DNA of 64,000 nucleotides. Source: an uncultured delta proteobacterium (GTDB lineage Bacteria; Desulfobacterota; Desulfomonilia; UBA1062). A model generated the notes under the pieces. The model was not told where the DNA came from, did no database searches, and was given only the letters and a program-made list of their open reading frames with translations. A program made the position numbers and the translations under genes. The stretch spans positions 224,001-288,000 of the forward strand of contig CAWAUM010000007.1 of the NCBI GenBank assembly GCA_963785235.1. Reading direction: 5' to 3'. Shown piece by piece: positions 13,190-64,000 of this stretch; the first letter of the stretch is position 1, and each line of letters begins with the position of its first letter.

Positions 13190-13212
13190 GGTACACCCCC
13201 AAGGTATAGTTT

Positions 13213-19560: not shown

Positions 19561-19582
19561 GTTGATGAAAAATGGAGTTGCA

Positions 19583-25071: not shown

Positions 25072-25086
25072 GAAGAGGTCTGTTAC

Positions 25087-27410: not shown

Positions 27411-27478
27411 TCATTTGTGCAAGGCAAGATACTGAAGCTTCATTACCATCATTCACTCGGACACAGGGGGAGCAAGGA

Positions 27479-28518: not shown

Positions 28519-28574
28519 TGAGTTTAAACATGAAGCCAAAATTAAAAAATGAGCAGTGAAAGGGGGTGATATTG

Positions 28575-28739: not shown

Positions 28740-28812
28740 AAACAGATCAGGGACTGACCAAAAAAGATGGAAGTCAGCTGAGAAGTCAAACGGTAACAAG
28801 GGAGGAAATATT

Positions 28813-45014: not shown

Positions 45015-45064
45015 GGGAGCCGAAGGGGGCACGTGCAGGGGTCTGTCATGAAGGTCTGAGAGAT

Positions 45065-46927: not shown

Positions 46928-47526
46928 CGATGGGAACGAAGGAAAAGAAAGATATCATAGAAGAGATCCTTTCAAAAGAGCTCAAGATGTTTCTGAGCGT
47001 ACCTTCCGCACAGAAAAGCACGTGTCAGGAGAACCCGGAAAGCTTCAAGCTCCACCGCAGGGCGCAGTTCTCATCCTGGTCGAAAGTTACGCTTGAGAGC
47101 TATCTGCATGACCTTGAAAGGGCGCAAGAGAATGGGACGAATCTTATGACGCAGAAATATGCACGCATGGATAATCTCATTTTGCAGTTAAGCAGCAACC
47201 CCCTTATCGATATGATCGTGGGCTACCAATGTGCCTGGCAGCGCTCGATGATGATAAAATATCCCGGGATAATGAGCGGAGGCCGTCCTCTGTCCAGTGC
47301 AGAGGATTCCACCTTCATGACCTCCTTCGAGACGTATTTGAGGGGGGAGCTTGAAACCTATACAGACGCTACCCTTGAACTCCTAAGCAAAGACATCCTC
47401 GATAAACATGCACATGCCATCAGCATGGCCGAGGAGATCTATACGTGTCTGGTAAAGGACATGGGGTATGATTCACTAGATGAAGCCGAACAGACATTGA
47501 GAGTCCGGAGGAGTGGACAAGGATAG
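46924..47526 (+). CDS. DUF4125 family protein
   Basis: CQENPESF, SYLHDL, NLMTQKYARM, TSFETYLRGELETY. Confidence 0.72.
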   Translation: MTMGTKEKKDIIEEILSKELKMFLSVPSAQKSTCQENPESFKLHRRAQFSSWSKVTLESYLHDLERAQENGTNLMTQKYARMDNLILQLSSNPLIDMIVGYQCAWQRSMMIKYPGIMSGGRPLSSAEDSTFMTSFETYLRGELETYTDATLELLSKDILDKHAHAISMAEEIYTCLVKDMGYDSLDEAEQTLRVRRSGQG

Positions 47527-47542
47527 AAGCGGGTGGCGGCAG

Positions 47543-47941
47543 TCAGGCCAGCCTGGCCGAGATGAAAAACCCGAAAGCCACACACCAGATGTTGATGAAG
47601 GCATTCAGGATAAGATCCAGGGAGGAACTCATATAGATCCCATTTTGGATATTGAAGCTGAAATCAAGTACGCCCAGGAACATGAGGCTCCCGGCGCATA
47701 CGAGGGACAAGATCCTGCCCAGTGGGTTGCCCTTCATAACCAGGGCGGCAGACGTGATTAGTGCCAGGCCCAGGATGATATCCGGAAGAGGGAAGGCGTG
47801 TTCAAAGGCAAAATAGCACTGGGGAGGATTTGTGGGTGCAAGTCCGATTGTAAAAAATCCTATCCAGAATAGGAGCAGCCCGAACCCAGTGCACAGTTCA
47901 AAGATGGCCAATAATCTCAGCTCCTTCCCGTTCATTTTCAT
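47543..47941 (-). CDS. Small integral membrane protein (about 4 TM)
   Basis: 132 aa, four hydrophobic stretches, FEHAFPLPD motif; RBS GGGGG. Confidence 0.65.
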   Translation of the reverse strand: MKMNGKELRLLAIFELCTGFGLLLFWIGFFTIGLAPTNPPQCYFAFEHAFPLPDIILGLALITSAALVMKGNPLGRILSLVCAGSLMFLGVLDFSFNIQNGIYMSSSLDLILNAFINIWCVAFGFFISARLA

Positions 47942-48097
47942 ATCCCCCCTGATGGCCTGTCGCCTTGTATGGACGGATGATGCAGCTTATTCTCCCGTTG
48001 TTTTCCTCAAGCAGAGGTTATAGCCTGAGCTGAAAATAAACCATGTAATGCTTATAGTATTATACTACATCCCAGGCTTCATCTTAATCAGATGGTC

Positions 48098-48902
48098 CTA
48101 TATGGGTTTATCCAGTGCCTTGCGGGCGAAGATAGCAGCTCCCAGTGCCCCGATGATCTGGGGGTCCACCGGCAGCGAGGTCACGTCCATGTTGATGATT
48201 TTTGCCAGTGCCCTGAGAAGACCCAGGTTTTTGGCACAGCCCCCCGTGACCGTAACCTGTGGACGCATGCCGATGCGCTTGAGAAGGGTGAAGCACCGCT
48301 TGGACACGGCCGTCTGGATGCCTGCTGCTATCTCTTCCGGCGGATTCTTTCTGGCCAGGAGGCTTATGACCTCGCTCTCGGCAAAGACACTGCACTGGGC
48401 CGTGACCGGTATGATCTTCCTGGCCTTGAGCGAAAGATCCGAGAACTGTCCCAGGTCCATGCGGAATATCCTGCTCATGGCCTCGAAGAAACGTCCGGTG
48501 CCGGCGGCGCACTTGTCGTTCATGGCGAACTCCAGGACAGAGCCGTCACCGTCGAGTGCAATGGCCTTCACATCCTGGCCGCCGATATCGATGATGGTTT
48601 TGATGAGGGGATTGCATGAGAAGGTGCCCATGGCGTGGCAGCTGATCTCCGAGATATTCTTGTTGGCAAAAGGCACCTCGTTTCTCCCGTAGCCGGTGCC
48701 CACCAGGTAGGCGATGTCCCGGTAGCTGCCCATATCCGGAACCTGGGCGCAGGCCTTTTCCAGGGCAAGTACCGAGGTCAGCTCCGGGATCGATCTCGCT
48801 GGGGACAATGGAACTGGCTATGATGGCGCCTGCTTCATTGATAATGACTGCCTTTCCTGTTGTCGATCCCACGTCGCATCCGCCGAAATACTTTGTTGCC
48901 AT
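48098..48902 (-). CDS. ATP-dependent activase (HgdC/BadFG/BcrAD ASKHA family); frameshift near 48790
   Basis: GCDVGSTTGK, GTGYGR, DIGGQD.K, NDKCAAGTGRF, CSVFAESE, TGGCAKN. Confidence 0.9.
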
Positions 48903-48939
48903 GTCTGTCTCCCTATCGTTATGATGTAGTTATTTATTT

Positions 48940-50250
48940 CTAGATATCAAGCATCCATCCCTTGCCCTGCAATTTCGCAATAACCTTTGCCGTGCTCAGG
49001 AACGTGGATCTGAACATATCGCTCATGATGGCACTCTTGACCGGCGGCAGCCTTAAAAAGGCGCCGATAAAGGATCGCATGAATTCCTGGGTCATGCTTT
49101 GAGGGTTGTCGAATAACTGATTCTGCAGGGTGCCGCGCTCGAGTGATGACAGCATCGTCACCTCGAAGAGCGATTCAGGATGGAGAACCCTGCTGCTGCG
49201 GGGCATCATCTCAATGGCGCCTGTGGGACACTTTGCAATACAGACCCCACAGCCAACGCATATTCCTGTATTAACCTGGCCCTTTTTTCTTTTTATATTT
49301 TTGGGGTCATTTGCGGAATTCAGACTTAAGGCGTTCACCGGGCATACTTCAACACATTTTCCACATCCTGTACACTTGACGGTGTCTATCTTTGATATGA
49401 AGTTGGAGGTGATAACGCAATTCAAATATCCGAACTTGTTCAAACCGCCGAGGAAATTACAGCAACATTTGCAGCAATGACAAATAGCCATGGGTTTCTG
49501 TTTGGTGTTAACAGAACAGAATACCAGATTAAAGTCTTTGGACCTGGCAAAATTGTCCATCATTTCAGACTGTGATACCTCACGTCCAAAATTGTTTCTG
49601 ATAGCATATTCTGCACCTATCCCCAAAAAACAGCAGCTATCGAGCGGTGCATCGCATTCTTTATTGCCGGTGTGCAGCTTTTCATTCCTGCAGGAACATA
49701 AGCCGATGGCGAGTTTGGGAGAGCTCTCGATAAGCGATGTGGCCTTCTCATAATCAAAGAATTCCGTATGGCTGTCTTCTTTAATGGATTCTTCTATGGG
49801 GATAACCCGTAGCGCAGAAACCTGTTCACTCTTGGAAAAGTTCGCTGCGTAGACAGAGCCGAAGTATTCATGAAACAGCTCGGCCCATCTCTTCATATTG
49901 AGACTTTCTCCAGACCTCATCATGGTGAATTCGAATATCCCTATGGCTATGGGCCAGGGCATGTAGTAGTACTGGCCGTGGACTTCATTCCACAGGTCCA
50001 TGACGAGCCCTTTCTTGCATAGCCTCTCCAGGATTCCCTGCAGACGGGTTTTCTCAAAGCCGGTGACGTGTGAGATTCTCTCCAGCGAGGAGAGGGTGTA
50101 GGGCATTCTAACAACGACGTCTGCCTCATCAGTGGTGTACAGTTCCTTCAGAATGCTGTGCCATGTCTCGTTCCAGGGCGCCCTCACATTCAGGTTGTCT
50201 ATCTTTTTCCCCAGTTTATAATATACCTGGCCTTCTTCTATCGTATGCAT
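48940..50250 (-). CDS. 4Fe-4S dicluster protein with N-terminal winged-helix-like region
   Basis: GIFEF, CSCR, ICHCCKCCC, 2x CxxCxxCxxxCP; start MHTIEE at 50250 with AAGGAG RBS. Confidence 0.82.
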   Translation of the reverse strand: MHTIEEGQVYYKLGKKIDNLNVRAPWNETWHSILKELYTTDEADVVVRMPYTLSSLERISHVTGFEKTRLQGILERLCKKGLVMDLWNEVHGQYYYMPWPIAIGIFEFTMMRSGESLNMKRWAELFHEYFGSVYAANFSKSEQVSALRVIPIEESIKEDSHTEFFDYEKATSLIESSPKLAIGLCSCRNEKLHTGNKECDAPLDSCCFLGIGAEYAIRNNFGREVSQSEMMDNFARSKDFNLVFCSVNTKQKPMAICHCCKCCCNFLGGLNKFGYLNCVITSNFISKIDTVKCTGCGKCVEVCPVNALSLNSANDPKNIKRKKGQVNTGICVGCGVCIAKCPTGAIEMMPRSSRVLHPESLFEVTMLSSLERGTLQNQLFDNPQSMTQEFMRSFIGAFLRLPPVKSAIMSDMFRSTFLSTAKVIAKLQGKGWMLDI

Positions 50251-50294
50251 CCTATAACTCCTTAATATAAAATTATAAATAATCTGATCATGTC

Positions 50295-51843
50295 TTATTG
50301 ATCGAGGCGCTGCGCCTTCATGACATTCTCCATGAAGAAATCCACCTGGTTCATCATGCTGTCTTTGGATACGATGCGTGGGTCGAGCAGGTCGTAATCG
50401 AGGATGAGCAGCGGTATCTTCATTTCCCGGCATTTCTCCCGCAGGATGCCGTTCATGGCCTGGCCGCTCTTGCAGCCCACGTGGTTCGCCACCCACACCA
50501 TGTCGAGATCGAACTGCTTCACCATGCGGAAGATGTCGTCGAGATAGTTCTCCGCAGGCCCCCTGGTGTGGCGGACCATGGGACCCTGCATGATGGTCCT
50601 GCCCAGACCTCGGAGCATGGATTCGGGGGTCGAGGTGTCTATGGGCTCGTGGCGGTGAAATGTCATGCTGTCATTGATGACCGTGACCCCATAGGTGCGT
50701 TCGGTATGGTTGAAGATATCGATGAAATGGGGGAAGGGCGGGTTCCAGACAACGGCCCGGAATTTCTCATTATCCGTTGCGGGAATCCCTGCAGAGAGAT
50801 TCTTCCGTGCCATTTCCACCAGCCGCTCATAATGCTTTATGGATATGGGGTGGCCTGGAAAGAGATTGACATGCCACATGTGGCTCAGGAATACGGCCTC
50901 GGCTGCAAGGGGGGCAGGCCTGACCCGGATCATGTCCCAGAGCTCCAGCTCAAGCTCCAGCATGCGGTTGCGGCCTTCACAGTTCTGTCTGAGGCGGTTC
51001 CAGTCCATGCGGCCGGGGGTATGTTCTTCAAGGAATGCGATCATGCCCTTGAGGTCCTCAGCAAAGAACTTTTCCGCCCTTTCATTGTAGAAATTATGCG
51101 GGGCATCGATGCGGTATATGGGGATCCCCAGTTCCCGCTCCATGAGGGCATAGGACGCCATACCGGCATCGCAGGGCATATTGGAGCTGAGCATGGCAAG
51201 ACCCTTAGGCATCTGGCCCTTGAGCACCATGCCCATGGTAGCCTTGGGCAGACTGCATGCATCGGGATTGACCCCGGCGTTTTCCGCTTCGTCTATGTAT
51301 TTCAGGTCGCTTTTCCCCGCCAGAAAGGGCAGGAGCAGGCTCATGGATTCCAGCACCCAGACCTTCAAGCCCATGGCGCGTGCTATGTCGGGTGGGACCA
51401 TCTCTTCACTGATGATCATACGCTCGGATTGGTAAAACAACTCCTCCAGGTTCTCTGCCAGGGTCAGCGAGACCGTGTAGACGGTCATGCAGATGGACTC
51501 CAGGTAGAAACCGCTCCGGGAGCGGCAGAGCCGCCGCATCAGGCCGGTCACTTTGAGCAGGTACAGCATCCAGGGATAGCGGATGAGCTCGCGGACAAAT
51601 CCCGGTCCCCGTTTCAGGACGAGTTTCGCAATACACAGCCAGATCAGGACCCAGTATCTGGCGTAGATAAGGAAATCTTTAGCCGACAGGGTCAGTAAAT
51701 CGCGTACAATTTCCCTGGATGGAATGCCCAAAGGAGCTGATCAGGCCGGGAAGGGTTTGTAGAAAAGACTTAATCCTGTTTATTATGTCATACGAATAGC
51801 TGATTTCATCCGGATAGGTATCAGGCACGGTTTTTGTCTTCAT
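50295..51843 (-). CDS. 2-hydroxyacyl-CoA dehydratase/benzoyl-CoA reductase family subunit (3-Cys type); frameshift near 51731
   Basis: DACSLPK, NMPCDAG, NHVGCK, LDYDLLDPR; start ATG 51843 overlaps the upstream stop (ATGA). Confidence 0.85.
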
Positions 51844-53376
51844 CTGGTTGCTGAAGCTCCCTTTCCATCCAGGCGCGGGGCCTTCATGACGTTCTCCATG
51901 AAATGCTCAACCTGCCGCTTCATGTTGTCGTGGGACACGATGCGGGGGTCGCTCAGGTCATAATCAAGGATGAGCACGGGGATCCCCTTCTCCCGGCATT
52001 TCTCCCGCAGGATGCCGTTCATGGCCTGTCCGCCCTTGCAGCCCACGTGGTTTGCCACCCATACCATGTCGAGATCGAACTGCTTGTGGGCGCGGAAGAT
52101 GTCGTCCAGGTAGTTCTCGGCCGGCCCCCTGGTGTGGCGGACCATGGGGCCCTGCATGATGGTCCTGCCCCATCCCAGCAGCATGGATTCGGGCGTGGAG
52201 GTGTCGATGGGCTGGTGATGGTGGTAGGTCATGCTGTCGTTGATGACCGTCACGCCGTAGGTGCGCTCGGCCCAGTTGAAGATGTCGGAAAAATGAAGGA
52301 AGGGGGGGTTCCACACGATGGTCCGGTACCGTTCGTTGAGCGTGGCCGGGGTGTTGGTCTCAAGGTTCTTCCTGGCCATGTCCACGATCTTCTCGTAGTG
52401 CTGGACCGACGCCTCGTAATCCGGAGTGACATTCACATTCCAGAGGTGGCTCAGCCATACCGCCTCCGATGCCAGGGGGGCGGGCCGTAGCCGGAGCATG
52501 TCCCACAGCTCCAGCTCCAGCTCCAGGATGCGGTTGCGGTTGCCGCAGATCTTCCGGAAACGGTCCCAGTCCATGCGGCCCGGCGTGTGCTTTTCCAGCC
52601 AGGCGATCATGCCCTTCACGTCTTCCAAGAAAAGATTCTCCGCGCGCTCATTGAAAAAATGAAACGGCACGTCGAGACGGTAGGTGGGGATATCAAACAT
52701 GCGCTGGATGAAGGCGTACGAGGCCGCACCGGCATCACAGGGCAGATTGGAGCTCACCATGGCGATCCCCTTGGGCAGGTGGCCCTTGATGACCATGCCC
52801 ACGGTGGTCTTGGGCAGGCTGCAGGCATCTGCGTTCATCCCCTCGTTCTCCGCCTCGTCTATGTATTTCAGGCACGATTCCGCATCAATTATGGGCAGAA
52901 CGATGCCCATGACTTCGAGCAGATAGGCGTCAAGCCCCATGGCATGGACGATGTCTATGGGAACCAGGTCTTCGTTTATGACCATGCGTTCAGGGTGGAA
53001 GAACATCTGCCTCAGCATGTCGGTGGTCCCGGTGACCACGGTGTGCAGGGCCAGGCAGACGGATTCAAGATACAACCCGGTCCTGCCCCGCCCATACCGG
53101 CTCATAAGTCTGTTGACCTTCAGAAGTATAAACAGCCAGGGATTTCTGATAAGCGTCCGGGCAGCACCAACAGGTCCGAGGGTAACAGTCATCTCGGATA
53201 AGGAATTTCCCGATACAGTAATTATTTAAAGACCAGTATTTCAGGTACGTCAGCGCAGCCCCGGAATCCCGCGAGCTGATGAGATATTCAGCCAGAGAGT
53301 TCTGCCATAAGCTCTTTCCTGGTCTCCGGCAGCTTCCCATCAGGGACGTGAGATATGCGCGCACGTTTTTCAACAT
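51840..53376 (-). CDS. 2-hydroxyacyl-CoA dehydratase/benzoyl-CoA reductase family subunit (3-Cys type), paralog of the previous gene; frameshift near 53195
   Basis: DACSLPK, NLPCDAG, NHVGCK; N-terminus MLKNVRAY at 53376 with GGAGG RBS. Confidence 0.85.
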
Positions 53377-53399
53377 GGAGGGTCCTCCCTGTGCAATCA

Positions 53400-54533
53400 T
53401 TATTTGCCCATGCTCTCGATGAAGGCCTGCACACGGGTGCGCAGCTGGCCTTCGCCGCCTGTCCGGTATTCACGCTCCAGTTTCAGCACCGGTATCCCTT
53501 CTTTGCGCAGGGCGCTCACCAGGGGCATGGAATCCACCCCCCAGAGATCACAGAATTTGATGATCTCCAGGACCACGCCGTCCACCTTGTATTCCTTCAC
53601 CGTGTCAATGATGGTCTGGAGCCTGAGATCGAAGTTCTCCATCATGCGCGGGCAGAGCGTCTTTTCAAAGGTATGCTCCGCCAGGGACCTGATGGGGTCG
53701 CCATTGACCTGTACGGGCTTGAATCCGGGAATGGTGCCGGTGCAGAAACGGTCCGCCACCACCATTGCCCCCTGGGACTCGATGATCTTGATGAAGGCCG
53801 GATCGTGCAGATGGCCACCCACCACCATCAGACGGGCCCGGTAATCATTGATTCCTTGGCGCTCTTCAAGCATTCTGCGGAACTCCATGAGGTCGGGCAT
53901 GATCAGGTCCTTGGGCGAAACCAGGGAGGCCATGAGCAGGGTGTGGAACTCGGTTCCGGTAATGGGCGGGTCGGTCCTCTTCCGCAGATCTCCGATGGAC
54001 CGGATCACTTCTGTGAACGCGTTCCATTCGTCAATGGCCTTCCTGAGCGAAGAATCGCTCATGTCCACGCCGAAATGGGCGGAAAGCTTGTCCGCGAGCA
54101 TCCTGAGTTCCTGGTCCAGCCAGGCAACGGTGTGCCCGTTCACCTTTCGCGGAACATCGATCACATGGTTGAACGCGGGCTTTTTCAGATACTCGAAGTT
54201 GTCGATGAGACGCTGCATGTGGGCGCAGGAAGGGACAAAAACCCATCCCTGTATCTGTTCGAACCGGTCATCCATGGCGAATTCCAGAATGCTCCGGGTG
54301 TACGAGCAGATCAGGCTGGAAAGGTAGTTGTCGGCAAGCTCGGTCCCTGCAACCCCGGGTGTATGCAGGCGCACGGGAAAGAGCCTGTCCGCCATGAGCA
54401 GGGCCTCGGGCACGAAGGAGCAGGAATACCCGATGGGTATGCGGCCATTCTGCGCAGCCTGCTCGACCAGAGGGTTCTGTGGGTTTTCAAGAAGCTCTTC
54501 GAATACGCGCATTGTCTTGCCGGTTGTCGTCAT
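53400..54533 (-). CDS. 2-hydroxyacyl-CoA dehydratase family subunit, six-Cys (double-cubane-type) pattern
   Basis: GYSCSFVPE, ICSYTRS, PSCAHMQR, DRFCTG, LCPRM, KFCDLWG; C-terminal GQLRTRVQAFIE. Confidence 0.85.
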   Translation of the reverse strand: MTTTGKTMRVFEELLENPQNPLVEQAAQNGRIPIGYSCSFVPEALLMADRLFPVRLHTPGVAGTELADNYLSSLICSYTRSILEFAMDDRFEQIQGWVFVPSCAHMQRLIDNFEYLKKPAFNHVIDVPRKVNGHTVAWLDQELRMLADKLSAHFGVDMSDSSLRKAIDEWNAFTEVIRSIGDLRKRTDPPITGTEFHTLLMASLVSPKDLIMPDLMEFRRMLEERQGINDYRARLMVVGGHLHDPAFIKIIESQGAMVVADRFCTGTIPGFKPVQVNGDPIRSLAEHTFEKTLCPRMMENFDLRLQTIIDTVKEYKVDGVVLEIIKFCDLWGVDSMPLVSALRKEGIPVLKLEREYRTGGEGQLRTRVQAFIESMGK

Positions 54534-54611
54534 GACACTTCTCCCGGTACCATGGTGATCCCACGGCCTTCACCTATTATTTTCATCACCGTCAGCTCCT
54601 CCTTCGGCATG

Positions 54612-55445
54612 TCAATAGATACGCTCGCCTGGTTTAACATCGCCAAAGAGGCGGGCAAAGAGCGTGTTGTAAAGCGAAAAAATCACGATGTTGCCCAGCA
54701 GCCAGGACGAGCTTATGGCTTTCTGAGGGCAGATGTTCTGGCAGTGGTAGCACCGGATGCACCGGCCATCCAGAACCGGGTAGGGATTCAGGGTAATGCT
54801 CTGCACCGGGCATTCGTCGGCGCATATCCCGCACTGATTGCACAGGGTCTGATCAATTTTGGGCTTGGGCAGGAGGATGCGCAGCAGGAATGGTTTCGCG
54901 ATGAGGGCAACCAGGTCATAGAATCCCCAGTTGAGGCTTAAGGGGTCTTTTCCCCCTTCGTGTATAACGCTTGAACCGCCGGCCTGCAGTTGCCTGTCCA
55001 CTGCCTGGGCGAACGAGTGGGCACGTTCCAGATCCTCGTGATTCGGGCGCCCAGGCATGCGGCCGATCAGGCAGGGTGCAGGATGATGCACCGTGCCGCG
55101 CCCCATGAAACCTGCGAGAACCGATGCGCCTTTACCCTGTATGATGTGTGCCAAGTCGTAGAGAACCCTTCCGGGAGATCCGCCCGAGGTGGCAAAGACA
55201 AAGGCGGGTTTGCCATAAAGTGGAGGCAAGGCAGTGAGAAAGTCCTTGACCGGCGTGGGGGCCTGGCTTTCAAAACAAGGCGTTCCCATGCCCAGCACAT
55301 CACAGCTCAGGATATCCGCAGGCTGAGCCTCCTTCATGGACAGGGTGCGGACCGTGTGCCCTTTATCACGAAAGGCCTCTGCCATGGTCTCGGCAACCTT
55401 GCGCGTATTCCCGGTCTGGGAGAAGTACACCAGCAGCATGTTCAT
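54612..55445 (-). CDS. Flavodoxin-ferredoxin fusion (EFR1-like)
   Basis: YFSQTGNT flavodoxin loop plus CNQCGICADECP and CIRCYHCQNICP. Confidence 0.85.
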   Translation of the reverse strand: MNMLLVYFSQTGNTRKVAETMAEAFRDKGHTVRTLSMKEAQPADILSCDVLGMGTPCFESQAPTPVKDFLTALPPLYGKPAFVFATSGGSPGRVLYDLAHIIQGKGASVLAGFMGRGTVHHPAPCLIGRMPGRPNHEDLERAHSFAQAVDRQLQAGGSSVIHEGGKDPLSLNWGFYDLVALIAKPFLLRILLPKPKIDQTLCNQCGICADECPVQSITLNPYPVLDGRCIRCYHCQNICPQKAISSSWLLGNIVIFSLYNTLFARLFGDVKPGERIY

Positions 55446-55496
55446 CTCACTCAAGCCCTCCTTTCAAGTGCAATGATGGTGGACAATGTGACGCTT

Positions 55497-56267
55497 TCAT
55501 GGCAATAATCCGATCTTTTCGAGGATGTGTGCGACCTTTAAGAGCGCAGGTGAGGTTTCAGGCATGCCGGTAAGCGGTTCGCCTCTGAAGTCGAACGATC
55601 TGATCAGGTCATCGTCGTCGAGCCATCCGTACATTTCAAGGTCTGTTCTGCCCCTGATGTCGTCCACCTCTGGCTGGTTCCTCACCCTGTTGAGAACGAG
55701 CCCCATGCTCTTGAAGTCCACCGCCTTCTTCTCGTTCGCAACGTGCGCTATCGTATTTGCAACGCCAAGGCCCTTTACCGAGGTGTCCGACACCAGGACC
55801 AGGTGATCCACGGTCTTCATCACCCGCCTGTTGATCTGCTCGATGCCGGCCTCGCCATCGATGAGCACGATGTCGAACCTGCCGGCCAGGTCACCGATGA
55901 TGTCCTTGAGGAGGTTGTTCACCTTGCAGAAGCATCCCTCATCCTCGGGCCTGCCGATGGCAAGAAGGGCATATCCGTCACGTTCATGGAGGGCATCAAA
56001 GACCTCATAGTCCAGGAGCTTGAGCGTCTCCTTGCTCCCCTGGGGCTCGCCTTTCCGGATGTCTGCAATGAGTCCCTTCCTGATGTCGTCCACGGTCTTT
56101 TTCACTGTAATGCCCAGGGCCGATGCCAGGCCCACTGCCGGGTCCGCGTCTATGGCGAGGATCTTCCGCCCGTTCCCGCAGGCCAGCAGCTTCACCATGA
56201 GGGCCGAGATAGAGGTCTTGCCGACACCCCCCTTGCCGCACAGCGCGATAATCTTTGTATCAGTCAT
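55497..56267 (-). CDS. CooC/AcsF-like nickel-insertion ATPase
   Basis: GKGGVGKT, IDADP, GCFC (CxC), DGEAGIEQINR; own start MTDTK at 56267 (ATGA overlap). Confidence 0.85.
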   Translation of the reverse strand: MTDTKIIALCGKGGVGKTSISALMVKLLACGNGRKILAIDADPAVGLASALGITVKKTVDDIRKGLIADIRKGEPQGSKETLKLLDYEVFDALHERDGYALLAIGRPEDEGCFCKVNNLLKDIIGDLAGRFDIVLIDGEAGIEQINRRVMKTVDHLVLVSDTSVKGLGVANTIAHVANEKKAVDFKSMGLVLNRVRNQPEVDDIRGRTDLEMYGWLDDDDLIRSFDFRGEPLTGMPETSPALLKVAHILEKIGLLP

Positions 56268-56921
56268 GCAATACCTCTCGTGTTTTTTTCCAGGGCGGTT
56301 TCTGTCTCCTCGAGGACAGTGATCGCTGATTGCGCATAACCATCCGCCCCGTATTTTTCTGCCAGTTGCCGGTCCAGGGGGGCTCCGCCTACCATGATAA
56401 CCGTGCCCGGGGCACGTCTGTTTTACCGTTCTGATTATGTCCGGCATACAGGCCATGGTAGTGGACATCATGGCCGACAGGGCCAGGATATCGGCCTTGT
56501 TTTCGACAACCGCACGCTCGAACTCATCTGCCTTTACCTGCACACCCAGGTCAACTACCCGGTAGCCGCACGCCCTGTAGACCCCCGAAATTATGCTCTT
56601 GCCCAGATCGTGCGGGTCACCCTCGACAACGCCTATGACAACGGTCAAAGCCTCCTTATCTCCGGTGTCTCCGAATTCAGAGAGTTTCGCCAGACCCTGT
56701 GTTGCTGCGTCGATGCACAGGAGGAATTCGGGCAAAGAGGTATGATTCGACATCAAATTCCTTCTGAGGGTGTTGAGGCCATCGAGGATGGCGTGGCGCA
56801 CCTCTTTCATGGAAAGACCGGCATCCATTGCCCTGGTCGTCAGCGCCACGGTTTCATCCACCTGGTAAGCAGCTACCGCTGCTTTGATTTTTTCCATAAG
56901 TCCAACTTCTCTCTTACTCAT
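56264..56921 (-). CDS. Corrinoid (cobalamin-binding) methyl-carrier protein; frameshift near 56410
   Basis: Cap domain LPEFLL, GDPHDLGK (DxHxxG), LSAMMSTT; corrected tail VIMVGGAPL...YGADGYA ending at TGA 56264. Confidence 0.87.
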
Positions 56922-56935
56922 CCGGGTCCCTCTTT

Positions 56936-58105
56936 TCATCCATACAGCTCTGCTGCCTTGACCATGGCATAGGCATTTTCAAGGGGGGCATTCTGGGGGA
57001 ACTCGCAGCCGGGTGAAAGGATATAACCCCCGCCGGGAGCGAGGTCATCGATCTGTTTCCTGCATTCGGTCATGACATCGTAAGGGGTGCCGCGTGTCAG
57101 CAGCGGGGTGTCAATCATGCCGATGAGCACGATGTGGTCTCCATAGCGCTTCTTCAGCTCCTTACGGCTCGAACAGTCGTCCGGGAGGTGTGCGAAGCTT
57201 ATTGCACAGGGCTCCATGCTTCGAATCTGTGCATCGAAATATATCCCGTGACCGCAGTTGTGCACCCCAACCAGGCAACCTTTTTTTCTGACTGCCGAGG
57301 CGATTTCCCGTGCAAACGGCCCCTCGATCTTTTCCCAGAGCTCCTTGGACAACCCGTTCCATGATGCGAAGAGGGTGTCGATTACAACCATAACCACCCC
57401 GGCGTCGCATTGCGCTTCTGCAAATTCAATGAGCGCACCCGTGATGGTCTCACACGCTGCCATGACATCTTCCGGATTAGTAACACAGTCCTTGAAGAGT
57501 TCCTGTGTCCCCCGCATCATGTTGAGCACACCCAGCGGGCCGAAGAGAAAGCCTGCTACAAATCCCTTCAAGCCTATCCGGCGAACCATTATGGATAGCG
57601 CTTTTGTATACCCCTGCATGCGTATGGCATGCTTGAAATCGATGGGCTTGAGCTTCCGGTAACCCTCGATATTCTTGATCACCGGGTTCGCGTAGTCGGG
57701 ATGTGCGGTGGAGTTGTCCGGGTAAATAAGCCTCTGTCCGAAATCGGCGGCCTCTATTGAGAGGTCCACCAGCGCGACTATACCGTCACCGCCGATGAGA
57801 TTGAAGCCGGCCACGAAGGACTCGGCAGCTATTACGGGGTCGGCGCAGAATTCCGCGTAGGTGTTTCCGATAAGCCGTCTGCCTGCGCCGCATATTATGG
57901 GGCAGCACGGGACATGGTCAGGCTCCTTGTGCCGCAGGGTCACCAGCATCCTCTCGAAATTTGTAAGGCTGCTGATGCGCCCCCTGGCACTGCATAAACC
58001 CCCTGCAGCATCCAGAAGGAAATCCGGCAGCAACGCGGGCGAGGGGGGTATCCCTCCAGCAAGGGTCTTCAGCGCTCTCCAAATATCCTTTGTTGTGTCA
58101 GCCAT
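56936..58105 (-). CDS. Uroporphyrinogen decarboxylase-family methyltransferase (MtaA/CmuA-like, Zn type)
   Basis: DLSIEAADFG, GPLG, GVHNCG (HxC) and SPGCE Zn ligands. Confidence 0.85.
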   Translation of the reverse strand: MADTTKDIWRALKTLAGGIPPSPALLPDFLLDAAGGLCSARGRISSLTNFERMLVTLRHKEPDHVPCCPIICGAGRRLIGNTYAEFCADPVIAAESFVAGFNLIGGDGIVALVDLSIEAADFGQRLIYPDNSTAHPDYANPVIKNIEGYRKLKPIDFKHAIRMQGYTKALSIMVRRIGLKGFVAGFLFGPLGVLNMMRGTQELFKDCVTNPEDVMAACETITGALIEFAEAQCDAGVVMVVIDTLFASWNGLSKELWEKIEGPFAREIASAVRKKGCLVGVHNCGHGIYFDAQIRSMEPCAISFAHLPDDCSSRKELKKRYGDHIVLIGMIDTPLLTRGTPYDVMTECRKQIDDLAPGGGYILSPGCEFPQNAPLENAYAMVKAAELYG

Positions 58106-58836
58106 GCAGTGTCTCTTTTGATTTTTCCATGAGCTTATCCCTCATGCCTTTAAGTCCATCGGCCTCATCGCATACATCCTGGTAGTCACAGCTCCCGCAC
58201 TCGAAATCCATCTCGGCGGCCATCTTGTTCATGGCAGCGATAATCTTCTCCGCAGGCGCAGTGATCTCCTTGAGCCTGTGTACATCATCCGTGCTGGAGG
58301 TGAAGAAGATCACCTCGAAGGCCTTCACATAGGGCATCTCCTTGAAAGAGGGCCATGAGAGACGAGCCCAGTGACCGGGCGGAAAACCCCTGGGATAGGG
58401 ATTCCCTGCTGATCCTGCACCACTCTCTCATGTACTGGGACACAGCCCTCATCATGAATCCCTTGAGGTCGAGGTCGTATCGCAGGAAATCGAGCTCCTT
58501 GTGCCGGTCATAGGCATTGTCTTCGGTGAAGCCTTCCACCCCCAACAGGACCACCTTGCCGAAGGGGAGGCTCTTGCCGACGCTCTCCTGGAAATCAGGG
58601 CCGATGAGGGTTATCCTGCCATCTGTAATGGCAGAGAGGTTCTCTGTCCACAGCAGGCATGACACGGACTCCATTTCCGGGCTGCCCAGCTCAAGGGCCA
58701 TGTCCTCCTTCAAGACGATGTTTCTGCCGTGTCCGCCCGGCCACAGCCTTTTATTATCAGCAACCCAGGACCTTTTGCTGGGCATGTCCTCTACAAAGGC
58801 CCGGACTGACTCGATGGTGTTGGTAAAAAGTTCCAT
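58098..58836 (-). CDS. Small acetyl-CoA synthase beta-subunit (AcsB/CdhC middle-domain)-like protein; frameshift near 58345
   Basis: ELGSP, DGRITLIGPD, LPFG, GFMMRA..REWCRIS..GFS resemble the ACS middle domain; C-terminal CGSCDYQDVC; ~245 aa. Confidence 0.7.
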
Positions 58837-58844
58837 AGATTCCT

Positions 58845-59636
58845 TTATCCTGCCTTGTCAGCAGCCTGGCGGGCAATGAGCGCCGCACCAAGTGCCCCGA
58901 TGATCTGTGGGTCGGTGGCCATCTTCTGGAGCTTCACCCCCAGCGCCTCCTCAAGGGCCGCGAACATGCCGGTGTTTTTTGCCACCCCTCCGGTCATGGT
59001 GATTTCTTTATCGAGCTCTATGCCCCTGGCCAGAGCAGCCACCCGGTGGGCCAGTGACTTGTGCAGCCCTGCCACGATATCAGAAAGGTTGTTGCCTGCA
59101 TTGATCAGCGAGATGATCTCCGTCTCTGCGAAGACCACGCACTGGTTGGAGATGGAAAGGGGGTTCTTAGACTTGGAGGATATTTCTCCCATGTCTTCGA
59201 GATTGATCCCCATTGCCCCTGACATCACCTCCAGGAACCTGCCCGTGCCGGAGGCGCACCGGTCGTTATAGGCAAAACGGATGACATTGCCGCTATCATC
59301 CAGTCTGATGGCCTTGGCGTCCTGACCCCCGATGTCGATCACCATATGCACCTCAGGCATGAGCCACTGGGCTCCTTTGCCGTGGCATATGATCTCTGAC
59401 TCCACGGCATTGGCAAAGGGGATGGAGTTCCTGCCATAGCCTGTGCCCACGCAGTAGGCGATGTCTGCTAGGGTAAGCCCTGCCTTCTCCAGGGCCTTTT
59501 CCATCACTTCCCGGGCCGATTCCTCGGGTTCTGGTTTTGCAAATATAACGTGTGAGGCAAGCACATCACCATTTGTCATGATGATTGCCTTGGCGCTCAA
59601 TGATCCGACGTCACATCCTGCTACATACATGCTCAT
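58845..59636 (-). CDS. ATP-dependent activase (HgdC/BadFG family)
   Basis: GCDVGS, GTGYGR, DIGGQDAK, NDRCASGTGRF, CVVFAETE. Confidence 0.92.
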   Translation of the reverse strand: MSMYVAGCDVGSLSAKAIIMTNGDVLASHVIFAKPEPEESAREVMEKALEKAGLTLADIAYCVGTGYGRNSIPFANAVESEIICHGKGAQWLMPEVHMVIDIGGQDAKAIRLDDSGNVIRFAYNDRCASGTGRFLEVMSGAMGINLEDMGEISSKSKNPLSISNQCVVFAETEIISLINAGNNLSDIVAGLHKSLAHRVAALARGIELDKEITMTGGVAKNTGMFAALEEALGVKLQKMATDPQIIGALGAALIARQAADKAG

Positions 59637-59821
59637 AATCTCTCCGTTACATGGTTTTGTTCTTTTTTAAAACCTGGCCCGTAAAAACTGATCATCTCGC
59701 CTCTGGTAAGGATGATGTTTCTCCCGAATCGTTCAGGCGAGATGATCAGTTTTTACGGGTTCATTTTTTTCTCCTGCAAACTATATTTCCACTGATGAAA
59801 CATTGGCCCATTCTTCTCTCA

Positions 59822-60604
59822 TCAATTCTTTCCGGCCATCTCTTTGGCAAACACCGCAGCCCCCAGTGCCCCCATGACCTGAGGGTCCACCCTAAGCCTG
59901 CGCATGGGAACGCCCAGCTGTTTTTCCATGGCCTCGAGCACCCCGGCGTTCTTTGCAACACCGCCTGTCATGCACACATCCTTCTCAACACCCACTGACT
60001 TGGCCAGGATTGCAACCCTGGCCGCCATGGCCTGGTTGATGCCGGAAGCCAGGTCTGCCTTTGATGTGTTCGAGTTCAGGTGCATGATGACCTCGGCCTG
60101 GGCCCAGGCCGTGCAGGTGGCAGCCAAGGAGATGGGGTTTCTGGCCTGTGCGGATAGCTTGCCCAGGTCATCGAGCTCCAGGCCCAGGAGCTTTGCCATG
60201 ACCTCGAGGAACCTGCCCGTACCCGAGGCGCACTTGTCATTGGTGATGAACCTGACAATGTTTCCCTTCTCATCGAGGCGGATGGCCTTGCAGTCCTGAC
60301 CCCCGATGTCGATGATGGTCCTCACCGTTTGCAGGAGCCAGTGGGCGCCCTTGGCATGACAGGCGATCTCGGACAGCGTCTTGCCCACAAAGGGTATCCG
60401 CTCCCTGCCGTAGCCGGTCCCTACGCAGAACCCGATGTCCTTCATGGTGAGCCCGGCAGCGCTCAATGCCATATCCATAACCTCAGGGGCGGATTTTTCA
60501 GGATTGAAGGATGATGGGATCAGCGCCTGGCTGATGACACGGGTGTTGTTGAGGATCACCGCCTTGGTGGTGAGTGATCCAACGTCACAGCCTGCTGTGA
60601 TCAT
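59822..60604 (-). CDS. ATP-dependent activase (HgdC/BadFG family)
   Basis: MITAGCDVGS, GTGYGR, NDKCASGTGRF, CTAWAQAE. Confidence 0.92.
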   Translation of the reverse strand: MITAGCDVGSLTTKAVILNNTRVISQALIPSSFNPEKSAPEVMDMALSAAGLTMKDIGFCVGTGYGRERIPFVGKTLSEIACHAKGAHWLLQTVRTIIDIGGQDCKAIRLDEKGNIVRFITNDKCASGTGRFLEVMAKLLGLELDDLGKLSAQARNPISLAATCTAWAQAEVIMHLNSNTSKADLASGINQAMAARVAILAKSVGVEKDVCMTGGVAKNAGVLEAMEKQLGVPMRRLRVDPQVMGALGAAVFAKEMAGKN

Positions 60605-62006
60605 GACGAAATCCCCCTTACGTGCATGAACTCGCTGATCTTGTCCACGCAGTGCTCCCATGATGCGACGCGATCGTCAAAGGCATCGGCAAAGAGCAGC
60701 ATGGTGGGCAGGCCTTCGCGCTCGCAGTCGCGCTGGATGAGTTTGTTCGCGCCCCAGCTGTTGCGGCACCCCATGCTGCCTACATAGACCAGGAAGTCGG
60801 GCTTCATGATCTTGGACATGAAGAGGAGGTCGTCGCGCCACATCCCTGGCGCGTCATACGGTCCCCTGAGCTGTTTGACCATGGGCATGCGGGAGTTGAG
60901 ATCGGCCAGGGAGTCGATCATGGTGTCCAGATTTGATGTGTCTATATGGTAGGTCTCGTCTTCGCGGCCTTTTGTATATTGATGCCCTCATTCCAGAAGT
61001 TGAATATGAGCGTGGGCAGGAGGCTGATATCCTGTGAGTCGACCCATTCCCAGAACCGTGCGTCAGTGGTGTAGTGGTCGATGTAGCACATGAGGAGCCG
61101 CGCCCGTTCCTTTTTTGAGGTCGTGCCGGCATGGCCCTGTGGCTGCATTTTCACGCACAACCTTGAGCATGGATTCCAGCACGGCGGTGTATGCCTTTCT
61201 GCCCGGCATGCTGAGCCTTCCGGCGTAGATGAAAAGGGTGAATATGGGAGGGACCGGGCATGGTTTGAGCCTCATGAGGTCATAGAGTTCGATTGAGAGC
61301 TCGTCCTGGCGCTTCTGCTCTTCAAGGAGTTCTTTCAGCTTGTCTTCGTTCAGCCTGGAGCCTGACTGTTCTTCAATGAAGGAGATAAGGGCCTTGTAGT
61401 CTTTCCGGTGATAGTCGTCGATCCTTTCCCCTGTGAGCTTTGAGGGGAAGTTGAGCTGGAACATGGGGAGGTCGAGGTAGGAGGAGAGAAACTGGACCGC
61501 ATTGGCATTCGTGTCGCAGATGCCGGGAGCTCCGCAGATCAGAAAATCGGGTTTTTCGGCAAGGCCTGCCAGGTATGCCCCGAACGACCCGCGCTGGGCC
61601 GAGCAGGAGGTCTCAGTGAATCCTACCTCGCAGCAATAGTCCATGTACTCCGCCGTGCCCTTTCTCAACGCCAGCGTACCGAATACGGTCATGGTCTCAG
61701 CCCATGCAGGCACCACGTTGTCAAAGGCGAAGAGCAGATGTTTTGCCGAGACAAAGGTTCCGAGGCAGAGCTTTTTGCCCTGTCATGCGCTGTCATGATG
61801 TCGTCGAGGTATTCTGCAAGCATCTTCATGAAGAGCACGCCGGGCTCCCCGTGCTTTAACATCGTATTGCGACGGTCTTGAAGTTCGGTATGACCCGTGG
61901 TCAGGCTTTCATACTCCTTCTGCGTCCCATCAAGGGCCTTGGAAGCGGCACTGAAAATGCTCCAGAGCATCCAGTCGTAGTTATATTCTCTTGTTTCCTT
62001 CTTCAT
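60601..62006 (-). CDS. 2-hydroxyacyl-CoA dehydratase family subunit (3-Cys type); several frameshifts
   Basis: ORF pieces 62006, 61716, 61160 and 60921 join: ETSCSAQRG, GICDTN, SMGCRNSWG, ADAFDDR. Confidence 0.78.
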
Positions 62007-62019
62007 AGACTTTGCCTCC

Positions 62020-62262
62020 TCATACTGCCGACATGCTCAGATGTGCCCCGGACTTGATCCTCTGGATGTAGAGCTTGGAGCGGTCCTTGAGGACCTCCAG
62101 GTCTGTCTTTCGGACAATATATTCCAGTGTCATAACCGCAGAGGTGGGGAACAAGGTGAGTGCATCGATGGCCCGCTGCCTTTCGGCCAGCATTCTTTTG
62201 TCATCCAGCGCTATATCGCGTAAAACTTCTATGGCTATTGTTTCTCTGTCTATCTGGCACAT
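62020..62262 (-). CDS. Small helical hypothetical protein (80 aa)
   Basis: ORF with AAGGAG RBS sitting tightly between two dehydratase-family genes. Confidence 0.6.
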   Translation of the reverse strand: MCQIDRETIAIEVLRDIALDDKRMLAERQRAIDALTLFPTSAVMTLEYIVRKTDLEVLKDRSKLYIQRIKSGAHLSMSAV

Positions 62263-62273
62263 GAGAATCTCCT

Positions 62274-63408
62274 TTATGAAATTCGCTCCATGAATGCATC
62301 GAGACGCATCCTTATCCTTCCCGTCTCCACCAGGGGGCCGTATTCCCTCTCGAGGCGCATGCAGGGGATGCCTGCCGCCTCGAGGTCGCGCTCAAGGACA
62401 CCGTTTTCCGAGCCATGAAGGTCGCAGAAGCGCACATTCTGAAGGATTACGCCGTCTACTGAGGCCTTCTTCACGAGGTCCATGATGTAGGAGCGCCGGT
62501 CCTTGTAGTAGCCGAGCATGCGCGGGCAGATGCTGTTGTGCAGGTAGTGCGATGCAAGGGCATGGACGGGCTCTGCCTTATCGTCCACCAGGCTTGCATA
62601 GGTGCGTGACCCGAAGCACACGGTGTCTGCAACGACAACGGCGCCGCCGTCCTCGATAAGCTGATGAAGTCCAGATCGTCGTTGGCGCTCCCGATGAGCA
62701 TGAGCCGCTTCTTCTGGTCTGACACGGATGGCGCCTTCTCCAGGTCATTAATGATCAGCCTTGAGCATGTGGTTGAATGATTCCCGGGGTATGGCATGGC
62801 CTGCAATGAGGATGGCCATGGCATCCTCTCCCGTGATGGGCACTTCTGTGCGGTACCTGAGCGCATCGATCTTCTGCAGGAGTTCTCTTCCCTCGTTGTA
62901 GACCTTGATGGAATTTCTTCAGTGCCTTTGCCGTGATCTTCACCCCGAAATGTTTCTCAAGGGTTGCGATCATATCCTTGAGCTCGTTCTCGTAGAAATC
63001 GATGCTGTAATCCACCGCCTTGTGGGGCACGGAAAAATATTCATAGTATCCGGGTAGCGTCCCTGGGTAGTCTTCGCTCGCCTTTCTCCAGCACTCCTCG
63101 AGCCTGCGCATGGAGTCGCAGCCGTTACTGATAATGGCTCCGTCTAGGAAGTTGTATGACCCCTGTCCTGCAAGCTGGAGCATGCACTTGGGGAGGCTGC
63201 AGTTTACCGGACCGTAGTAAGAGTCGCCGATGGAGAGGGACGTGGTCCCTATGCCCCGCAGCCTGAAGGGCAGGAGCCCTGCTGCATGAAGGATCTCTTC
63301 GGGGATGAAGGTGCAGGAATAACCGACAATCTTGCCCCCTTCATCCTTGTGCTTCTGTACGAGCTCGCTGCACAAGGTGTTTGCTGCATCTTTCATCTTC
63401 TCGATCAT
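62274..63408 (-). CDS. 2-hydroxyacyl-CoA dehydratase family subunit, six-Cys (double-cubane-type) pattern; several frameshifts
   Basis: GYSCTFIPE, NCSLPK, NGCDSMRR, DTVCFG, ICPRM, RFCDLHG; C-terminal GRIRMRLDAFME. Confidence 0.82.
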
Positions 63409-63983
63409 CTCACACCCCCTGATGAGGGCTGGGTATCGCCTTGGAACTTCGAGACATCGGGGTAATTGCCGTGGCCGGTTGTTTCGTTATCTCCGGTCAA
63501 TTCGGAGATGCCCCTCTTGAGTATGGGCATTAGGGCAGACGCAAGCGGTTTCAATGCCCCTACCACGTCTGGCACCAGCCACTCGGCAGTCCTCACGATA
63601 TCCTGTGTCTTTAAGGAATCGACCACCCCGCTGATGAGATTCGCCACGAGGTCGGGTCTGGCATCATGGATCTTGTTGATGACCCTGCTGGCTGTATTGA
63701 TCAGCTCCGCGGCTTCAAAGGTGTCCAGATCCGTCATACTCTCGCTCACTGCTGCCTTCAGGCCGGTTTCCTCCAGATTCTCAATGAGGGAAAGCCTGCG
63801 GTTCCCGGCCCTGATGCCCGAGCTTTTCACCGCCCCTATGGATGCGATATGGGACAGCAGTATCTGGGGATTGGCAGAGGCTGCATCAGCATACGCATTC
63901 GCTATTGCCTCCTTGTCTTCCGCAAACATGATGCTGACCTTTCTGGCGAGCTCAGGATCAATCTCCTTGAAATACTCACCCAT
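63405..63983 (-). CDS. Helical hypothetical protein (may start beyond the window edge)
   Basis: Open frame of at least 192 aa whose stop overlaps the next start; no motif recognised. Confidence 0.55.
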   Translation of the reverse strand: MGEYFKEIDPELARKVSIMFAEDKEAIANAYADAASANPQILLSHIASIGAVKSSGIRAGNRRLSLIENLEETGLKAAVSESMTDLDTFEAAELINTASRVINKIHDARPDLVANLISGVVDSLKTQDIVRTAEWLVPDVVGALKPLASALMPILKRGISELTGDNETTGHGNYPDVSKFQGDTQPSSGGVR

Positions 63984-64000
63984 GAGATCGGTGAGATACA

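Follow-up and report, generated by a model that had tools for sequence, protein, structure and literature searches.

The window analysed here comprises 64,000 nucleotides (nt) of contig CAWAUM010000007.1 (assembly GCA_963785235.1) from an uncultured delta proteobacterium of the Desulfomonilia, and carries near its end a gene cluster that lies on the minus strand throughout (48098..64718), i.e. extends 718 nt past the end of the window. This cluster is rather likely to be one of three copies of a conserved catabolic operon which encodes an uncharacterised member of the superfamily of benzoyl-CoA reductases (BCR), 2-hydroxyacyl-CoA dehydratases (HAD) and double-cubane proteins, and whose first module resembles the Bzd type of BCR. 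The operon is set apart from the described members of the superfamily by its fixed companions, namely a family-less helical protein (U), a fragment of acetyl-CoA synthase (ACS) and a CooC-type ATPase, often joined by a flavoprotein of the GMC type. The substrate of the first module is probably an acyl-CoA.

Read along the minus strand, the cluster encodes protein U, two subunits of the HGD-D family (A and B) and two ATPases (p and q), these four forming module 1, the ACS fragment (also called CdhC-like below), a methyltransferase (MT), a corrinoid protein (CP), the CooC-like ATPase, a flavodoxin-ferredoxin fusion, three further HGD-D subunits (A2, B2a and B2b), a cysteine-rich Fe-S protein and a third ATPase (r), with A2, B2a, B2b and r as module 2. 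An earlier note, made from the letters of the DNA, had described a co-directional run with these gene types, and Pfam and NCBIfam profiles bear this out: its five HAD/BCR-family subunits correspond to five HGD-D genes and its three HgdC-type activases to three BcrAD/BadFG ATPases. The ATGA-type overlaps it had seen are present at four junctions (U/A, B/p, MT/CP and CP/CooC), and the cluster does continue past the window as it had supposed, with the rest of U followed upstream by genes for a GMC-type flavoprotein (439 aa) and an ABM-domain protein. Taken as a whole, what the note observed is partly confirmed, and the interpretation it gave is partly supported.

Genomic copies and distribution

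Comparison by blastn and of tables of open reading frames (ORFs) revealed three copies in the source genome: the one in the window, one on contig C13 (C13:220928-232586) and one on contig C5 (C5:602774-612658). The C13 copy is colinear with the window, has all its genes intact and shows 91 % nt identity to window 59804-66768; it contains neither MT nor CP and ends with a gene for a long-chain-type acyl-CoA ligase. The C5 copy includes MT and CP and is 91 % identical to window 54630-59622, with one of its ATPase genes split.

Conservation was followed in two sets of loci, which may share records. The relatives' set was drawn from 19 genomes belonging to the family and class of the source genome, in which CooC-like matches mark 20 loci. 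For the wider set, one genome per species was scanned with a 13-row alignment, which gave 80 loci in which reference proteins were placed by tblastn. Among the relatives, the genes of the ACS fragment and the CooC-like ATPase stand side by side in 14 of the 20 loci, behind U, A, one or two copies of B, p and q where the contig extends that far. MT and CP are present in a single one of these loci (genome G002), where the overall order is that of the window. Since the same architecture including MT and CP occurs in an independent genome, the order found in the window is no chimera. Another genome, G007, carries more than one copy of the operon (loci L016 and L031), and L031 is rearranged, with r, B2 and A2 placed between the ACS fragment and the CooC-like gene.

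According to their record titles, the 80 loci of the wider set belong to Desulfomonilia, 'Deltaproteobacteria', 'Smithella', Spirochaetota/Leptospirales, Desulfobacterales and Bacillota, the Desulfobacterales including Desulfosudis oleivorans, Desulfocicer vacuolatum and Desulfobacula. The CooC-like gene directly follows the ACS fragment in 77 of the 80 loci. Where enough flanking sequence exists, A, B and an ATPase gene lie upstream in 56/59 loci (at least 5.5 kb upstream), U is present in 53/57 (at least 7 kb upstream), the GMC flavoprotein in 30/51 (at least 8.5 kb upstream) and module 2, as A2 plus B2, in 36/58 (at least 4.5 kb downstream). The cysteine-rich Fe-S protein was found in 20 of all 80 loci, the flavodoxin-ferredoxin in five, and MT together with a CP of more than 50 % identity in two. 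As many loci keep the ACS fragment and the CooC-like ATPase without having module 2, the two belong to module 1, of which they are a fixed accessory pair. The comparison of gene neighbourhoods, which the earlier note had proposed as a check of its idea, thus gives a divided answer: the ACS-like and CooC-like genes are indeed kept beside the HAD/BCR genes, and this association is general, but the link to methyl transfer is lineage-specific.

Recurrent neighbours in the wider set are genes for acyl-CoA-dehydrogenase-like proteins (15), aldehyde:ferredoxin oxidoreductases (9), enoyl-CoA hydratases (7) and AMP-forming (5) or ADP-forming (3) CoA ligases, as well as regulators of the GntR (20) and TetR (12 and 9) types. 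The presence of acyl-CoA genes and regulators nearby points to a role of the operon in the inducible catabolism of CoA thioesters.

The reductase-like modules

Subunit A (63408-62274; 377 aa after read-through of its frameshifts, recognised in fragments by the Pfam HGD-D model) has BzdN (8s02_B) as its best sequence match in the PDB (3.1e-39), followed by HadC, MbdN and DCCP. It has six cysteines (32, 70, 97, 264, 294, 328) that 54-55 of the 55 orthologues retain and that align with cysteines of both BzdN 8s02_B and DCCP; the first of these positions is not a cysteine in the aligned dehydratase subunit HadC. The same six are invariant in all 40 sequences of A2 (54533-53400; 377 aa, intact; PF06050 280.8 bits), a second BzdN/DCCP-like subunit. 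In BzdN, as described in the available part of PMC11971306, six cysteines hold an [8Fe-9S] double cubane, and by their cysteine pattern A and A2 would carry such a cluster as well.

Subunit B (62006-60601; 468 aa after read-through) is matched in the PDB by HadB (3o3m_A, 2.3e-9) and DCCP only, and phmmer yielded no alignment of B to BzdO from which the counterparts of the catalytic Glu/His pair next to the aqua ligand of BzdO could be read. Three of its cysteines (135, 164, 414) are invariant in 70 of 70 sequences. The same part of PMC11971306 describes a [4Fe-4S] cluster held by three cysteines in BzdO, with a water-bound fourth iron facing the substrate, and a single three-cysteine [4Fe-4S] cluster in HadB. 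B would likewise have a [4Fe-4S] cluster in which one iron is open and faces the substrate. In module 2 the partner subunit B2a (53192-51840; 450 aa) has a tandem duplicate, B2b (51731-50295; 478 aa), and four cysteines of B2 (C124, C152, C385, C399) are invariant in 23 of 23 sequences. B2a and B2b show 74 % nt identity; relatives hold one or two copies in varying order.

The ATPases of module 1 are p (60604-59822, its ORF being open to 60661; PF01869 203 bits), which is BzdQ-like, and the distinct q (59636-58845; PF01869 200 bits), both of the BcrAD/BadFG family. The ATPase of module 2, r (48902-48098; 266 aa in the paralogue), is of the HgdC type and matches positions 60-271 only of the PF01869 profile. 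Each of the three has two invariant cysteines at equivalent positions, namely 127/166 in q (57/57), 144/183 in p and 131/170 in r, which we take to correspond to the cluster ligands of HgdC; p and q would be expected to pair as a heterodimer, with a [4Fe-4S] cluster as the bridge. Two further Fe-S proteins are encoded among these genes. The first (55454-54612) is a fusion of a flavodoxin with a 2x[4Fe-4S] ferredoxin, recognised by the flavodoxin and Fer4 families of Pfam, that belongs to the EFR1 family (NF038196, 107.7 bits with a cut-off of 75), and the second (50250-48940) is the cysteine-rich protein, which has one 2x[4Fe-4S] ferredoxin domain (Fer4 families).

Several results weigh against too close an assignment to the Bzd enzymes. 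No subunit reaches a curated NCBIfam equivalog cut-off for Bcr/Bzd, Had or DCCP. In detail, A scores 145.2 bits with the BzdN model (cut-off 453.8), p scores 206.6 bits with the bzdQ model TIGR03192 (cut-off 380.2), q scores 193.8 bits (cut-off 380.2), and for B no match to bzdO or BcrB was obtained at E<=1e-5. The HadB and HadC models give 44.8 and 154.2 bits with cut-offs of 750 and 700, and the double-cubane model NF040772 gives 172.7 bits for A and 163.5 for A2 with a cut-off of 350. Because these cut-offs are missed and the solved relatives of B are HadB and DCCP, the choice of 'reductase' over 'dehydratase' is an architectural one. The genes of the cluster have no one-to-one counterpart in a described Bcr/Bzd or Hgd operon, a correspondence that the earlier note had named as a refutation of its idea.

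The ACS fragment, the CooC-like ATPase and protein U

The ACS fragment (58836-58098) is a protein of 245 aa that consists of the middle domain of ACS and a C-terminal CxxCx5C motif (PF03598, 47.5 bits). Its residues 33-197 align with about residues 325-487 of bacterial ACS, i.e. the middle domain, and its sequence matches in the PDB are to ACS only. The AF2 model is of high confidence (pLDDT 94, pTM 0.90), and the 23 structures that Foldseek matched to it at E<=0.001 are without exception ACS/CdhC chains, with 167-194 aligned columns and query TM values of 0.48-0.56 (0.53-0.56 at an E-value of 2e-10). The matched chains have roughly 400-730 residues, and the A-cluster (A3) domain of ACS is missing from the fragment, so that the carbonylation considered in the earlier note is not supported. 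The same note had spoken of a truncated AcsB-like protein; the 183-aa form it saw is a frameshifted version of the 245-aa protein, which still represents no more of ACS than the middle domain. The fragment scores 46.6 bits where the NCBIfam cut-off is 372. Its tail contains the invariant motif DCxxCxYxxVC, the cysteines of which (C213, C216, C222) are kept in 69 of 69 sequences.

Stand-alone proteins of about 240 aa make up the family of this fragment, with 374 cluster representatives at E<=1e-10. A word-indexed search returned 216 members at E<=1e-5, named either 'hypothetical protein' or 'CO dehydrogenase/acetyl-CoA synthase beta subunit', and longer or fused relatives were not met with at E<=1e-10, which is weak evidence. 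The canonical ACS of the genome is encoded elsewhere, at 293.6 kb of C5.

The CooC-like protein (56267-55497; 256 aa) is a P-loop ATPase of the CooC/AcsF type. CooC1 (3kje) is its best match in the PDB (7.3e-14), with the P-loop (deviant Walker A, GKGGVGKT) and the CxC motif aligned. Each of 70 sequences keeps C10, C112 and C114. A predicted complex of two CooC-like chains with the ACS fragment scored 0.43, the best of three controls 0.00, and the runs have at least 34 % of contacts in common with a partner pLDDT of at least 77. In the calibration 58 of the 80 solved complexes and 2 of the 110 mismatched pairs attained the mark, with scores of up to 0.60 in only seven of these 80 solved complexes and in both mismatches. 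We take the prediction as weak support for a complex of the two proteins. Word searches of the literature, supplementary tables being outside their scope, found no description of the pair or of its association with BCR-like genes; the parts of PMC6776118 and PMC13416013 that were available mention Hgd-like annotations only.

The third constant companion, U (64718-63405, of which the C-terminal part, 63405..64000, lies in the window), has 437 aa and belongs to no Pfam or NCBIfam family. Its AF2 model (pLDDT 77.5) contains helices only. Foldseek gave no match to it at E<=0.001, VIA-align found helical hairpins only (Z<=8.3, residues 1-99), and the matches in the Atlas are to unnamed clusters only, with scores of up to 0.83.

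The methyltransferase and the corrinoid protein

MT (58105-56936; 389 aa) belongs to the URO-D/MtaA-CmuA family of Zn methyltransferases (PF01208, 192 bits); MtaA (4ay7) is its best PDB match (1.5e-14), and the Zn-ligand positions HxC and PGC are aligned. CP (56939-56264) is of the MtaC/MtbC type and has 224 aa in the intact paralogue on C5, which shows the DxHxxG motif and matches 1y80 at 2.1e-23. Both proteins are below all NCBIfam cut-offs. Neither a second methyltransferase nor an activator of the RACo type was detected in the cluster with Pfam and NCBIfam. RACo_C_ter is matched at two other places of the genome, C5:270412-271188 and C1:434214-434952. The match on C1 is part of a canonical set (C1:434214-438048) of MT, CP, MT and a RACo-type activator that is split in two pieces; the one on C5 lies near the Wood-Ljungdahl genes of the genome.

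Homologues of MT (E<=1e-60) occur in 9 of 41 genomes of the family and class. Close copies (94-98 % identical) are situated in the cluster, in the source genome (twice, the window MT being 98 % identical to the C5 copy) and in G002 and G011; six other genomes have copies of 53-62 % identity. At four of the latter contexts (G024, G007, G012 and G015) a Pfam scan showed no BCR/HAD-type gene among the ORFs scanned. In G007 and G012 the MT and CP genes stand by themselves as a pair, flanked by enolase and thiolase genes; in G024 the scan showed CP only, and in G015 neither of the two. MT and CP sit exactly between the ACS-fragment and CooC-like genes, which share an overlap of 4 nt where the insert is absent. 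The two genes are thus an insert of one sublineage and not part of the core machinery. The overlaps rebuilt on all junctions speak on the other side, as they show the insert to be translationally integrated, the junction with the CdhC-like gene being an 8-nt overlap; on account of this tidy integration a functional link to the ACS fragment keeps a small probability.

Frameshifts

Five genes of the cluster are interrupted by about eleven 1-nt insertions or deletions (indels): three in A, five in B and one each in the CdhC-like gene, CP and r. When compared with the intact C13 paralogue, those in A are near 62917, 62761 and 62661, and those in B near 61897, 61869, 61786, 61139 and 60979. The frame changes near 58340-58373 in the CdhC-like gene and near 48786-48800 in r, which gives two tblastn pieces. 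A further one near residue 176 of CP (about 56410) joins this gene to the CooC-like frame, so that an ORF of 480 aa results; its residues 1-178 and 173-480 are two overlapping frames in both the C5 copy and G002. A corrinoid protein fused to a CooC-like ATPase, as the ORF had suggested, is therefore a frameshift product.

The eleven frameshifts are probably assembly errors, the genes being intact in the organism. This is concluded from several observations. Genes outside the cluster are broken as well: carB (window 3-3153) is split into four ORFs and rpoC (C3:146059-150280) in two, rpoB being intact. All eight indels of A and B are single bases, and in the corrected frame the dN/dS values relative to the C13 copy are 0.11 for A and 0.10 for B, with 0.08-0.18 for intact neighbours. 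In addition, environmental contigs of at least 93 % identity bear a compensating indel at no fewer than 5 of the 11 sites (48786, 58373, 60984, 61141, 61900), related environmental contigs being without one base at 48786, and wherever the orthologues occur in the relatives' loci, tblastn matches each of them over its full length in one piece. Other genes split within the window are a PFL-like gene, a fatty-acid cis/trans isomerase (CTI), a radical-SAM activase and a carboxyltransferase; split genes lie at 10194-13261, 14177-16514, 27218-28515 and 43447-45048.

The reading as assembly errors is not free of difficulties. The contigs with compensating indels come from other samples and may include paralogues. 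Frameshifts are also denser in the cluster, where about eleven fall in 16.6 kb and eight of these in a 2-kb stretch of A and B, than in the remaining 48 kb of the window with its at least seven, which leaves room for a real decay of A and B. A decaying paralogue could moreover be redundant beside the two further copies on C13 and C5, and the indels lie outside homopolymer runs. We nevertheless regard decay as improbable: the breaks in rpoC and carB concern essential genes of the same assembly, the C5 copy likewise has a split ATPase, larger deletions do not occur beside the 1-nt indels, and the dN/dS values of A and B are no higher than those of their intact neighbours. When sequencing runs were searched for sampled words of 57000-64000, the best run reached 0.23 and none at least half. 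Contigs from RNA libraries (X20) match parts of the cluster at 90-99 % identity; as contigs, they cannot show transcription.

Comparison with known systems

The class I benzoyl-CoA reductase of the Bzd type (BzdNOPQ; BzdNO 8S02, PMC11971306) resembles module 1 in having two HGD-D subunits together with two different BcrAD/BadFG ATPases, and in its cysteine patterns, with six in A as in BzdN and three in B as in BzdO, a likeness of pattern only. Unlike in the Bzd system, the equivalog cut-offs are far off and B lacks a sequence match to BzdO. In addition, U, the ACS fragment and the CooC-type ATPase are constant here and the GMC flavoprotein and a second module frequent, none of which is mentioned for Bzd in the part of PMC11971306 that was available.

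The dehydratases HadBC with HadI and HgdAB with HgdC (3o3m) are of the same superfamily, and like them module 2 has a single HgdC-type ATPase and B is nearest to HadB, whereas A and A2 differ by their six invariant cysteines and module 1 by its two ATPase genes. Solved DCCP is a homodimer. To DCCP with its reductase (6eno, 7yyl; NF040772) the likeness is that this is the best NCBIfam model for A and A2 and that the cysteine positions align, the difference that the scores stay below the cut-off and that the six-cysteine subunits are each paired here with a three-cysteine partner gene.

With AcsB/CdhC and CooC/AcsF the accessory pair shares the fold of the ACS middle domain, including an aligned W-x-R stretch, and the P-loop and CxC of CooC1. 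The fragment differs by its 245 aa instead of about 460-730, by the missing N-terminal and A-cluster domains and by having only three cysteines, all in a helical tail, and the pair lies in a BCR-like operon and not beside the genes of CO dehydrogenase (CODH) and the corrinoid Fe-S protein (CFeSP). The insert, finally, resembles the systems of MtaA/CmuA and MtaC in the URO-D fold, the Zn-ligand positions as in MtaA and the His-on DxHxxG corrinoid protein; it is unlike them in having one MT and no RACo in the cluster, and its location, flanked by the genes of an ACS fragment and a CooC-type ATPase, is unusual. A match to the 'Magic' benzene cluster of ORM2 was considered and rejected, as the available part of PMC13101534 describes a different, GlcDEF-like set.

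Possible function and alternative explanations

In the mode of action that we propose, a low-potential donor, here the flavodoxin-ferredoxin fusion, would reduce the [4Fe-4S] cluster of p and q, and the hydrolysis of ATP would push the electron through the double cubane of A to the open cluster of B. At this cluster a substrate of the acyl-CoA type would undergo a one-electron reduction, with a ketyl or aryl radical, or an elimination. Module 2 (A2, B2a/B2b and r), with both cluster types and a single HgdC-type ATPase, could be an activator-dependent sister enzyme for the following step. A metal or a cluster may be loaded by the CooC-type ATPase onto the ACS fragment or passed on through it, and the outcome might be an extra metallocentre of the enzyme or a step in its maturation. 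Here too something is to be held against our interpretation, as the role given to the accessory pair is a guess.

Both subunits of the 2-hydroxyacyl-CoA dehydratases carry a single three-cysteine [4Fe-4S] cluster, and these enzymes have one homodimeric activator. The single ATPase of module 2, HadB as the closest solved relative of B by sequence and the upstream GMC-type flavoprotein, which could form a hydroxy or oxo group or act on one, would suit an explanation by which one or both modules are such dehydratases, especially A2/B2 with r, which would be catalytic like HgdAB with HgdC. We consider this rather unlikely, for the six cysteines of A and A2 align with those of BzdN and DCCP, the first position is not a cysteine in HadC, and the equivalog cut-offs for HadB and HadC are missed.

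The earlier note had proposed, among other possibilities, a system coupling ATP-driven reduction to methyl transfer or carbonylation. In an integrated model of this kind the ACS fragment would be a metal site handling methyl or acyl groups, to which MT and CP bring a methyl group or from which they take one, and methyl transfer or (de)carbonylation of an acyl-CoA would be linked to the reduction. Such a system would account for the exact position of MT and CP between the ACS fragment and CooC genes, with overlaps of 4-8 nt at three junctions, a placement shared by the window, C5, G002 and G011; with one MT and no RACo in the cluster the partner for the second half-reaction is not obvious, and the real middle-domain fold of the fragment, its CxxCx5C motif and its CooC-type partner suggest a metal site. 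A single MT can, as in MtsA/MtsB, serve both half-reactions. Yet only 2 loci of the 80 and 1 of the 20 from relatives contain the two genes, the C13 paralogue lacks them, homologues of MT with 53-62 % identity lie away from BCR/HAD genes in four scanned contexts, in two of them as a free MT-CP pair, and the fragment is without the A-cluster domain, which together make the coupling very improbable. Marginally more remote still, in our estimation, is the same idea confined to this sublineage, namely that the ACS fragment is an organometallic site, loaded with Ni or Fe by the CooC-type ATPase, which exchanges methyl groups with CP and through which the BCR-like enzyme is coupled to the C-methylation, demethylation or decarbonylation of an acyl-CoA; if true, this would be a minimal ACS-like chemistry outside the Wood-Ljungdahl pathway. 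The note had also suggested that the HgdC/Bcr-type ATPases re-reduce the Co(II) corrinoid protein to Co(I) in place of a RACo/RamA-type activator. The cluster has indeed no RACo-type gene, and ATP-coupled low-potential electron transfer is established for this ATPase family (PMC7317905, as far as its available part goes). We hold the suggestion to be extremely unlikely, as 78 of the 80 loci have these ATPases but no corrinoid genes, and reactivation by them is unnecessary because RACo-type activators are encoded elsewhere in the genome, the one on C1 beside two URO-D methyltransferases and a corrinoid protein.

Further observations in the window and its flank

An Rfam search of 47000-64000 gave no match at E<=0.1, and terminator scans of the same interval and of the flanking locus (L001) gave counts at or below those of shuffled sequence. 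Promoter-like sites number 21 in 47000-64000, with 10.2 (standard deviation 3.2) in shuffled sequence; they lie on both strands and agree in only 9-10 of 12 positions. In the flanking locus the counts are no higher than in the shuffles. The sigma-54 pattern has 15 matches with 10.3 expected, which is not above chance. A sigma-54-like site (GG-N10-GC) is situated at the window-equivalent position 66831-66846 (minus strand; L001:5831-5846), some 210 nt ahead of the ABM gene, the first gene of the cluster, and the flanking locus contains a gene for a PAS/sigma-54 activator (L001:11926-14226). Also upstream of the cluster, and divergent from it, a gene (L001:7599-10016) encodes an 805-aa GltD-like NAD(P)-binding Fe-S flavoprotein fused to a C-terminal nitroreductase domain.

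Elsewhere in the window, three glycyl-radical enzymes of the PFL2/glycerol-dehydratase type, each with a radical-SAM activase, are encoded within 22 kb (9207-13261, 16804-20512 and 27218-31317), and none of them reaches an NCBIfam equivalog cut-off. Between the glycyl-radical genes (22814-27407) are genes for a B12-binding subunit, a methylmalonyl-CoA-mutase-like large subunit, MeaB and a PrpD-like protein. The frameshift-split CTI (14177-16514; PF06934, 659 bits for the larger piece) is found here in an apparent strict anaerobe.

Conclusion

For the window the analysis means that the fusion and the truncation are artefacts of the assembly and that the B12 genes are an accessory insert. As many uncorrected 1-nt indels are apparent across this genome, any fusion, truncation or pseudogene in it needs checking. 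New here are the MT-CP insert, the presence of three paralogues in one genome and the reading of the frameshifts as artefacts.

Enzymes of the BCR family catalyse reactions that are among the most reducing known in biology. The breadth of the operon hints at an apparently common, undescribed anaerobic transformation of acyl-CoA compounds. The record titles name cultured species such as Desulfosudis oleivorans and Desulfocicer vacuolatum, and if these strains carry the operon, the question is experimentally approachable. The combination of a BCR-like four-subunit enzyme with an ACS fragment and an ATPase of the nickel-chaperone type, found from Desulfomonilia to Bacillota, hints at an unrecognised metallocentre or route of maturation.

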